From a virus (lineage: Duplodnaviria > Heunggongvirae > Uroviricota > Caudoviricetes), in the IMG/VR virus record IMGVR_UViG_2698536618_000025: a DNA stretch of 8,216 nucleotides; one strand, given 5' to 3'. Under the pieces are notes generated by a model. It did not search any database, had not been told where the DNA came from, and saw only the letters and a list, made by a program, of their open reading frames with translations. Shown here one piece after another: positions 2,440 to 4,040 of this stretch (position 1 is the stretch's first letter; every line of letters starts with the position of its first letter). A program made the translations under genes and the position numbers.

Positions 2440-2640
2440 CCCCACTACTCCCCACTTTTGCTCCCCACTTTTTGAAATTACCCACCGTCTCCCCACCTCT
2501 TTTTTTTGTGATTCTAACGTTATGTTTTTCAATATGTTTTTTACTCCCCACTTTTTTGGGTATATACAGGTGGGAAAGTGGGTAATTATGTTTCAATTTT
2601 GTTAAATTCCCCACTCCCCCCACTTTTACTCCCCACTTTT
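2440..2640. repeat. Iteron-type replication origin (CCCCACTTTT iterons with an AT-rich core)
   Basis: Perfect CCCCACTTTT at 2450, 2463, 2546, 2618, 2631 (two pairs spaced 13 bp); variants at 2440, 2481, 2491, 2609; inverted copy (AAAGTGGG/GGTGGG) at 2569-2582; AT-rich stretch 2500-2545. The last iteron overlaps the stop codon of the replication gene. Confidence 0.6.
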
Positions 2641-4040
2641 TACAGCGGGCGCACGTCATCACCGTCAATAACGATTACGCCATCATTTTCCAGCTTGTAC
2701 AGCCAGCGCCGGAAGTGCTTCATCTCATACCCCAGCTTTTTCATATCGTCGCGGAGAAGGGCGATAGTGCACGCCTCCCCGTGTGCTGTTCGTGTTCTGA
2801 TGCACTGCCATAGCGCGGCGTGATTCTCCGTCTTGTTCCCTGCCTCCTCGATGCGCTCCAGTTCAACGGGAGGGCGCGGCTTATCCACCACCACCAGCGA
2901 CGTGATTAACTCCCCGTCAGCGTCGGTAAAAAGCTCCACCACGCGTAAGTCATATGCTGCTTCTTTGAGTTCCTCCGCGTCCTTCATTTTGGTACATGAG
3001 ATAACCAGCGCTTCGCTGCCTGCGTCCTCCCTGCGTATCCGGTATTCGGCGTCCAGTGATGCACGAAATGCACTGGAACCACGCGCCCCCTTTGTTTCAT
3101 CCTTGCCGGAATGGTGAACCACCAGCACCGTTGCCCCTGTGCGCCGTTTCAGTTCGTCACACCCACGGATAAACGCCCCCATATCACGGGAATCATTTTC
3201 ATCATTGCCGCCAAAGCAGCGCGCCAGCGTATCCAGAATAATCATTCGAACCGGTTTACCCGTTTCCCGTTCCACCTGACGGGCAGCGATAACCATTTCC
3301 TCAACATCAAGCGGGGCAGCCGGAAAGATGGGACGGTTTACCAGATACAGATTTTTCACCTGCTCACCGTGCACAACCTCCCAGGCTTTTACACGACGCG
3401 GAACGCCGATACCGCCTTCACCAACCACATAGAGAACAGCGCCATGCGCCACCCTGCGGCCTCCCCACTGGCGGCCCGTGGAAACGTGACACGCCCACGA
3501 ACCCGCAAGGAACGATTTATATGAACCGCTCGCCCCGTATATGCTGCACAGCGATACCGCCGGAATAATCCCCTTAACCACGTAATCAAGTTGTGTGTCG
3601 TATCCGGCAGATCCCACGCTCATTGGTAGCGTGGTTTTTCGCTGGTGGTGTTTTTCTTCCCCTGGCTTTTTCCCCCGCTCCCGTTCCAGATATTCGCGCC
3701 AGTTCTCCCGCTTCTGGCTGTGCATCCCTTCGGGGTAATAATTCGCATCAGTTACACCCGCCGCCGCCAGCTTGTGCGCAATGGCATTAATATTTGATGG
3801 CCTGATGTGGCCTGCCTTGTACAGCCGGACACAATAGCGCCCCTCGTCGATGATTCTCAGGTCTGCCAGTTCATCCAGTTGATCATCAGCCAGCACAACG
3901 GGAGGCACATTATCGCCAGCCAGTCGCCCGTCCTGTTCCTGCCACTGTTTCGCATGTGCCCAGGCATCACTACCCGCAAAAATAATGACTTCGGTCATCT
4001 TGTCGTAAGGCTGTTTTTTTAAGTTCGGTGCGCTTTTCAT
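2640..4040 (-). CDS. Replication protein, RecA-fold ATPase/helicase (RepA / AAA_25-like), 466 aa
   Basis: P-loop-like GASGSYKS, Walker B-like MIILDT, TVLVVHHSGKD sensor-like motif; ATG at 4040 overlaps upstream stop (ATGA coupling), AGGGG 6 nt upstream; iterons immediately 3' of the gene. Confidence 0.85.
   Translation of the reverse strand: MKSAPNLKKQPYDKMTEVIIFAGSDAWAHAKQWQEQDGRLAGDNVPPVVLADDQLDELADLRIIDEGRYCVRLYKAGHIRPSNINAIAHKLAAAGVTDANYYPEGMHSQKRENWREYLERERGKKPGEEKHHQRKTTLPMSVGSAGYDTQLDYVVKGIIPAVSLCSIYGASGSYKSFLAGSWACHVSTGRQWGGRRVAHGAVLYVVGEGGIGVPRRVKAWEVVHGEQVKNLYLVNRPIFPAAPLDVEEMVIAARQVERETGKPVRMIILDTLARCFGGNDENDSRDMGAFIRGCDELKRRTGATVLVVHHSGKDETKGARGSSAFRASLDAEYRIRREDAGSEALVISCTKMKDAEELKEAAYDLRVVELFTDADGELITSLVVVDKPRPPVELERIEEAGNKTENHAALWQCIRTRTAHGEACTIALLRDDMKKLGYEMKHFRRWLYKLENDGVIVIDGDDVRPL

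Follow-up and report, generated by a model that had tools for sequence, protein, structure and literature searches.

The DNA that we studied, IMG/VR virus record IMGVR_UViG_2698536618_000025 (Caudoviricetes), is 8,216 nucleotides long, and we refer to this whole stretch as the window. It encodes a tyrosine integrase, an AlpA-like regulator, an Ash-family protein, a DUF4222 protein, a replication protein (Rep), a small terminase subunit (TerS), and a capsid protein, and all of these genes are on the minus strand. The rep gene (2640..4040, minus strand) encodes a 466-residue initiator-helicase of the RepA family with a RecA-fold ATPase, and its stop codon is a TAA at 2640-2642. The next gene on that strand starts with an ATG at 2436-2438, and the 201 bp between the two codons are filled by an array of short repeats. 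The initial annotation described this array as an iteron origin of replication that abuts and overlaps the rep stop codon and is packed into about 200 bp, and these aspects of the description hold up: the first iteron (2631-2640, or to 2641 with an extra T) overlaps the TAA by 1-2 bases, and the last copy ends 1 base short of the next ATG.

The sequence CCCCACTTTT occurs exactly five times in the window (at 2450, 2463, 2546, 2618, and 2631, all on the plus strand), versus 0.02 copies expected, and 0 of 200 shuffles reached five. On the minus (coding) strand this sequence is AAAAGTGGGG, and the coding-strand repeat unit is AAAAGTGGGGAG. There are four more direct copies with a GTGGG core, at 2440-2449, 2480-2489 (ACCCAC), 2491-2500, and 2609-2618. 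The five perfect iterons and several variants that had been claimed are therefore present, but the single inverted copy is really two adjacent ones, with GTGGG on the plus strand at 2570-2574 and 2578-2582. This gives 9 direct and 2 inverted copies, and the iterons read on the minus strand, as do the genes. Each unit is 10-13 bp with a core of 6 bp (6-8 bp when we compare it to other systems below). GTGGGG hexamers are concentrated here as well: 8 of the 11 in the window lie within 2440-2636 and share one orientation, while the rest are isolated and at the level expected by chance, so the window has no second iteron cluster.

Reading from rep, the array begins with a rep-proximal cluster of three direct copies (2609..2641, minus strand; copies at 2631-2640, 2618-2627, and 2609-2618). 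The inverted pair follows (2570..2583, plus strand; this includes inverted repeat I1), and then comes a TGTATATAC box (2560..2568, minus strand), which the initial annotation did not mention. This box separates the inverted copy from the direct copy that comes next, its alignment columns are invariant across seven alleles (described below), and it is a candidate for the place where the DNA is first distorted. Beyond it is a single direct iteron (2546..2555, minus strand), which pairs with the inverted copy so that the two converge on the TATATA box. Next is an AT-rich spacer of about 45 bp (2497..2545), which is presumably the DNA-unwinding region and which corresponds to the AT-rich core of the initial annotation; its GC content is just 20% across 2500-2539. 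Finally, the rep-distal cluster (2440..2500, minus strand) has five direct copies, at 2491-2500, 2480-2489, 2463-2472, 2450-2459, and 2440-2449. Overall, four direct and both inverted copies are on the rep side of the spacer and five direct copies are on the far side. A GGAG in the second-last distal copy is 9 nt upstream of the start codon that follows, and this copy may double as a ribosome-binding site.

We also looked for other kinds of elements in the array. No DnaA box lies inside 2440-2645 if up to one mismatch is allowed, which fits with independence from host initiation factors. An Rfam scan of the whole window (E up to 1) gave no match within 2440-2645, so an RNA element is not indicated there, and a promoter and terminator scan of the gap found neither a sigma-70-like promoter nor an intrinsic terminator inside it. 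When we searched the full text of the literature (text, not figures) for the iteron strings, the only matches were to unrelated primers and eukaryotic sequences. A literature search for work on PICI (phage-inducible chromosomal island) iterons or helicases returned no paper on this allele of Rep and its iterons, with the proviso that Fig. 2a of PMC6092414 may draw the iteron. Elsewhere in the window, a perfect match to the DnaA-box consensus (TTATCCACA) lies within the alpA-like gene (6424-6432, minus strand); this is the sole exact match in the window and is probably there by chance.

Residues 147-315 of Rep match the Pfam family AAA_25 (E = 2.6e-43), and its name in RefSeq is "helicase RepA family protein." By sequence, the closest solved structure is RepA of RSF1010 (1g8y), although this similarity is weak (E = 0.013). 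We modeled Rep with AlphaFold2 on an alignment of 43 sequences. The model has a confident alpha/beta domain at the N terminus (residues 1-123), a moderately confident RecA-like core, and a confident C-terminal unit that comprises three helices (405-419, 426-435, and 443-452) and then a beta hairpin (456-465). In a fold search, the full-length model matched solely RecA-fold ATPases, such as RadA, Rad51, and KaiC. Because low-confidence linkers hide small domains in a full-length search, we modeled the C-terminal domain separately, which gave a pLDDT of 86.5. The Foldseek matches of this domain were winged-helix DNA-binding domains (DtxR/IdeR, LexA, PcaR, histone H1, and the MCM winged helix), with TM scores of 0.58-0.66, root-mean-square deviations of 2.2-2.9 Å over 63-70 residues, and probabilities of 0.9-0.99. 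The predicted winged helix spans residues 400-466 or so (2643..2843, minus strand) and is the predicted reader of the iterons. Residue 442, which will be important below, directly precedes the third (recognition) helix in the model and sits in a conserved C-terminal motif, K-x-[F/L/M]-x-R-W-L. That Rep is a RecA-fold helicase of the RepA family with a predicted C-terminal winged helix is part of what our analysis adds.

To see how much of this arrangement is conserved, we compared about 90 loci: seven E. coli alleles, whose Rep proteins are 63-95% identical, and 80 further loci that we fetched from Xenorhabdus, Pantoea, Pectobacterium, Serratia, Morganella, Kosakonia, Kluyvera, Gilliamella, and two marine gammaproteobacteria. 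All seven E. coli alleles have a gap of about 200 bp and an identical order of elements: direct iterons that overlap the stop codon, an inverted copy, the TGTATATAC box, a direct copy, the AT-rich spacer, and more direct iterons. The further loci with an intact downstream region keep the same plan, and these include both Enterobacterales and the two marine gammaproteobacteria. Every element of the family's layout is present in the window.

The positions of the elements are also similar. In the window and the closest E. coli alleles, and counting from the stop codon, direct copies are at about +6, +19, and +28 (the first overlaps or lies within the 3' end of rep), the inverted copy is at about +60 (+45 to +61 in the loci that were mapped), a (T/C)(G/A)TATATA(C) box is at about +76, the single direct copy is at about +91, the AT-rich stretch begins at about +99, and three to five distal direct copies end at the next gene. 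In other clades the order is kept and the offsets are somewhat different. The rep-proximal positions (+6, +19, and +28) recur in the E. coli alleles and in Xenorhabdus. Among the 70 loci with at least five core copies, 64 have the module of inverted copy, TATA(T/C)A, and direct copy, and in 45 of these 64 the spacing from the inverted to the direct copy is 29 bp. Also, across the 70 loci, the median start of the AT-richest 40-bp stretch is +99 from the stop codon, and its median GC content is 0.20. The conservation of the TATATA module is a small addition by this analysis, as is the rule that relates a residue of Rep to a base of the iteron, to which we turn next.

A few relatives depart from this plan. 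In four loci (L093, L029, L076, and L027), rep is retained but the greater part of the origin is deleted or replaced, which is evidence of decay in some islands. In Xenorhabdus beddingii (L010), a complete origin of the GTGAGG type is followed, about 200-260 bp past the rep stop codon, by "...ATGAGGATTAAAAGTGGGGAGAAAAATGGGGAATGGTGGGGAA." From its sequence, this tail resembles the 3' end of a second rep with iterons of the GTGGGG type, and it is possibly a remnant of a second replicon in tandem.

Clades differ in the core of their iterons, and almost all copies in a given origin change together. These changes track the residue of Rep that aligns with His442, whose codon is at 2715..2717 on the minus strand (GTG on the plus strand, or CAC). 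If this residue is asparagine, the dominant core is GTGAG (as GTGAGG; 27 of 27 scorable loci); if it is histidine, the core is GTGGG (as GTGGGG; 15 of 15); and if it is serine or glycine, the core is GTGCG (as GTGCGG; 8 of 8 and 1 of 1, respectively). Lysine goes with GTGGG (as GTGGGGG) at 28 of 29 loci, and the exception is L076, which has a deleted origin. Overall, the rule holds at 79 of 80 scorable loci. The pairings of asparagine with A and of histidine or lysine with G fit the general preferences of amino acids for bases.

We wrote down the iteron cores that we expected before we fetched six further loci, and all five testable predictions were correct. An E. coli Rep with KNM has GTGAG iterons; a Salmonella Rep with KNF has GTGAGG iterons (8 direct and 1 inverted); and another Salmonella Rep, with KHF, has GTGGGG iterons (6 direct and 1 inverted). 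The C-terminal domains of these two Salmonella proteins are near-identical and differ at the H/N position. The other two predictions were for KNFS, which goes with GTGAGG, and for KHFS, which goes with GTGGGG. We also built a neighbor-joining tree from the helicase core, with the last 35 residues of Rep left out. On this tree there are at least six switches between histidine and asparagine, each with a matching switch between G and A, and 42 of 42 taxa are concordant. The concerted change of the copies within an array, together with the persistence of the rule across deep clades, argues from sequence comparison for a functional coupling between this residue and the iteron. The initial annotation had asserted that the iteron defines the specificity of the replicon, and this family-wide covariation of one predicted winged-helix residue with one iteron base lends support to that idea.

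One array appears to be a chimera. In E. coli KSC1031 (L005, 1733-1933), Rep has asparagine and five copies are GTGAG, but those closest to the next gene are GTGGGG (four GTGGG in all). This has the look of a junction left by recombination within the array.

The window matches a PICI that has already been cataloged, EcCI11368.1. In Table S1 of Fillol-Salom 2018 (PMC6092414), this island is at 3041660-3050231 of AP010953.1, with a length of 8.5 kb and the att (attachment) site "yejM-luxR." In E. coli O26:H11 11368, we find the island between tRNA-Pro/yejM and yejO. The segment with rep and the origin is at least 99% identical in 160 complete genomes of E. coli, including O26:H11 11368 and strains of serotypes O103 and O111. 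As expected for a PICI, the island has an integrase (6975-8216, minus strand), an alpA-type activator (6272-6478, minus strand), a unidirectional operon, an att site, and packaging genes. Repeats that resemble the att core (TTTTAGTTATACG) lie on both flanks of the island in strain 11368, about 8.5 kb apart (L001, 9529-9542, 18029-18042, and 18075-18088); Table S1 of PMC6092414 gives a single att core for EcCI11368.1. The match to strain 11368 is not perfect. The gene coordinates shift by 25 bp between the DUF4222 gene and the alpA-like gene, so 4336-6272 of the window is not collinear with L001, and the best match of the whole window among complete E. coli genomes is 97.6% identical over 97% of the window, in two pieces. 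Together, these imply that the source strain carries a variant of the Ash/Icd region. Our search of a phage database found nothing that matched rep or the origin. A plasmid database yielded just two doubtful records, one a 1.4-Mb "plasmid" and the other a partial match, so the origin was not found on genuine plasmids.

This kind of origin has been described before. According to PMC6092414, Gram-negative PICIs have, directly 3' of rep, two sets of iterons that flank an AT-rich region (Fig. 2a), all of the PICIs identified in that study share this organization, and both rep and the origin of EcCICFT073 are required to maintain a conditional plasmid. As the same paper lists the island, the feature was already known and is an ordinary example of its type, and our finding is confirmatory. 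The PICI half of the architecture that the initial annotation proposed is thus correct; we discuss the other half, the analogy to P4, below.

EcCICFT073 belongs to the same family of elements, and in it, too, the origin is directly 3' of rep, with two sets of iterons around an AT-rich region. Its downstream small ORF (open reading frame) is 77% identical to the 81-residue ORF that follows the array in the window. On the other hand, its initiator, Pri-Rep (584 residues, primase family), is similar to our Rep only across the N-terminal 125 residues (65% identity), and its origin carries TGTCTACC iterons that are spread over 288 bp in mixed orientations. This pattern of shared flanks and different centers recurs when the region is compared to E. 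coli genomes. Some matches cover only the small ORF and stop at the distal edge of the array (at about 247-253 of the query, or about 2439-2445 of the window). Other matches cover only the N-terminal domain, are annotated as "DNA primase family" or "DUF927," and stop inside rep at around residue 120. In a third pattern, all or part of the small ORF, the array, and about the C-terminal two-thirds of rep match together. Given the location of these breakpoints, the body of Rep and the array travel together as a single cassette with conserved flanks, and the array is exchanged along with the Rep body rather than with the downstream genes. A single E. coli genome may have up to 12 matching places, many of which are partial (a shared N-terminal domain of Rep or the small ORF).

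The closest parallel in design is with the pathogenicity islands of Staphylococcus aureus (SaPIs). SaPI Reps are helicases that load themselves, and their C-terminal winged helix reads iterons of 5-6 bp that lie directly downstream of rep around an AT-rich center (PMC9371898). The origins of SaPI1, SaPIbov1, and SaPI5 thus resemble ours in having short iterons just 3' of rep, an AT-rich center, and an initiator that is itself a helicase with a C-terminal winged helix, which in our Rep is predicted. But SaPI Reps belong to a superfamily 3/AAA+ clade, whereas the Rep of the window has the RecA fold of AAA_25 (RepA/DnaB-like) and is not a superfamily 3 protein, and we did not detect any sequence similarity between them. 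Because the helicases are from different superfamilies, the resemblance is one of design and not of family.

The analogy to P4 is more limited. P4 is also a satellite of E. coli phages, its multifunctional initiator binds 8-bp type 1 repeats, and it has a repeat-bearing region, crr (4291-4590), directly 3' of the alpha gene (4636-6969). However, the annotated ori of P4 (9086-9809) is about 4.5 kb from alpha, so the comparison is apt for crr only. P4 replication is bipartite, with ori and a distant crr that each have type 1 repeats to which alpha binds, whereas the window has a single cluster, a different iteron sequence, and another type of initiator.

The helicase core of Rep is from the same family as that of the IncQ plasmid RSF1010: both are AAA_25, and 1g8y is the best match by sequence in the Protein Data Bank, if a weak one. 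In RSF1010, a separate protein, RepC, binds the iterons, whose length is about 20 bp, and the helicase lacks a DNA-reading domain. In contrast, our helicase has its own predicted winged helix, and its iterons have a core of 6-8 bp. The classical iteron plasmids (pSC101, R6K, RK2, F, and P1) also have repeated initiator sites beside an AT-rich unwinding element, with specificity and incompatibility set by the sequence of the iterons. These iterons are 17-22 bp long with a spacing of about 22 bp, the winged helix-winged helix Rep proteins (Rep_3 type) have no helicase activity, and they have DnaA boxes and require the host's DnaB and DnaC. The array in the window is not a classical theta-plasmid origin by these standards, as its unit is 10-13 bp, it has no DnaA box with up to one mismatch, and its initiator is a helicase.

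Our favored explanation is that the array is the Rep-binding iteron origin of EcCI11368.1 and that it serves a self-loading helicase. We put the probability of this at roughly 85%. We considered whether the repeats might instead be Rep-binding sites whose main role is the control of transcription or translation, either by autoregulation or as a roadblock that gates the 81-residue ORF and the packaging genes. The array does lie inside a co-directional string of genes, between rep and the next ORF, and we detected neither a promoter nor a terminator in the gap. Furthermore, in all of the alleles the array ends at the next start codon, and its final copies lie right beside the ATG and extend over the likely ribosome-binding site. 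Nevertheless, a spacer with 20% GC and a conserved TATATA box with convergent sites are features of an origin rather than an operator, the region at the equivalent position in EcCICFT073 is required to maintain a plasmid (PMC6092414), and Rep is a helicase, not a repressor. So we think it improbable that control is the main role; as the two roles are not mutually exclusive, control could be a second function. It seems more far-fetched still that the array is a packaging (pac) site for the island's TerS, even though a TerS homolog is encoded 0.7 kb downstream and TerS proteins often recognize short repeated sites. The repeats covary with the winged helix of Rep, and the array travels with the body of Rep rather than with the downstream genes. 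Also, GTGGGG arrays occur upstream of genes for SSB, PerC, ProQ, or capsid proteins without any TerS in the approximately 1.5 kb of flanking sequence that we fetched.

Another concern is that the array might be a relic: an origin whose sequence is intact but which is no longer used because the island has decayed and become immobile. At 8.5 kb, the island is shorter than EcCIATCC25922 and EcCIED1a.1, which have the same att site and are 11.3-11.4 kb; RefSeq has pseudogenes in the Ash/Icd region of strain 11368; and the four relatives mentioned above have clearly deleted origins. But the window has the full layout of the family and a full-length rep ORF, the segment with rep and the array is at least 99% identical in 160 complete E. 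coli genomes, and att-like repeats are found on both flanks. We doubt this explanation about as strongly as we doubt that the array's main role is control.

Several observations do weigh against our favored explanation of the array as a working Rep-dependent origin. Given the difference in size from relatives at the same att site (about 11 kb), EcCI11368.1 may have arisen by deletion and may no longer be mobilized. The tested PICI replicon from E. coli is that of EcCICFT073 only, and its helicase/primase body and iterons are unrelated to ours. The iteron sets of SaPIs are described as pointing in opposite directions on each side, while in the window 9 of 11 copies are co-directional: both flanking clusters point the same way, and the opposite orientation is limited to one or two inverted copies on the rep side. 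For the C-terminal domain (76 residues), the E-values from Foldseek are weak (0.04-0.3). Finally, the codon for residue 442 is only about 75 bp from the first iteron. Because the two are so close, recombination of the cassette can carry both, so the apparent number of independent covariation events is inflated and should be viewed as an upper bound. Even so, selection or gene conversion is still needed to change 8-10 copies in concert.

If the array is the origin, then we would expect replication to proceed as follows. Induction of the island's operon by a helper phage would lead to the production of Rep, which, by analogy with SaPI Reps, would bind the iterons via its C-terminal winged helix. 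Rings of the RecA-fold (RepA/DnaB-like) helicase would then assemble at the convergent pair with the TATATA box and at the AT-rich spacer. There Rep would melt the DNA and load itself, so that a separate loader would not be needed. The excised island would then start to replicate, before it is packaged.

The origin would determine which Rep can replicate which island. It should thereby govern both the amplification of copy number before packaging and the compatibility of satellites that share a cell in pathogenic E. coli (O26, O111, O103, and O157). The rule relating residue 442 to the iteron predicts specificity groups from sequence alone, and it points to minimal edits that could yield orthogonal replicons with self-loading helicases.

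More speculatively, the family might be a natural set of orthogonal origins in which one residue at the start of the recognition helix sets one base of the iteron (histidine with G, asparagine with A, serine or glycine with C, and lysine with G). The initiators, with their superfamily 4/RecA fold, would load themselves at a convergent pair that flanks a TATATA box. This would make them a bacterial counterpart, from a different superfamily, of the origin logic of SV40 T-antigen and papillomavirus E1, as well as of the SaPI Reps. We would not be surprised if this picture were wrong, and on balance we lean slightly against it. If there is such a recognition code, then a single change of the H442N type, along with matching edits to the iterons, would switch both the specificity and the incompatibility of the replicon. 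A code would also explain how several such islands coexist in one genome.

The cassette has consistent neighbors on both sides. The DUF4222 gene (4037..4336, minus strand) overlaps the start of rep (ATGA) and is always upstream of rep in this family. The first 125 residues of Rep (3666-4040 of the window, minus strand) form an alpha/beta domain (pLDDT of about 85) that is common to PICI initiators that are otherwise unrelated. At the nucleotide level this domain matches genes for "DNA primase family," "DUF927," and "primase-like" proteins. It is modular, and it is always preceded by DUF4222. At the other end, the 81-residue ORF (2193..2438, minus strand) belongs to phrog_1231 (E = 5.8e-48) and marks the distal edge of the replicon cassette. 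It is kept downstream of different types of origins. Its usual downstream neighbor in relatives is an SSB gene, while in the window it is followed by a terminator-like hairpin with a run of T (2157..2174, minus strand).

Outside the replicon, the Ash/Icd-like region has two matches to Rfam above the gathering score, both on the minus strand: the C4 antisense RNA (RF01695; 77.6 bits) at 5252-5339 and isrK (RF01394; 66 bits) at 5361-5437. There is also a weak match to the c4-a1b1 target at 5398-5450. The C4 and isrK RNAs suggest that this PICI carries an antisense immunity module of the P1/P7 type.

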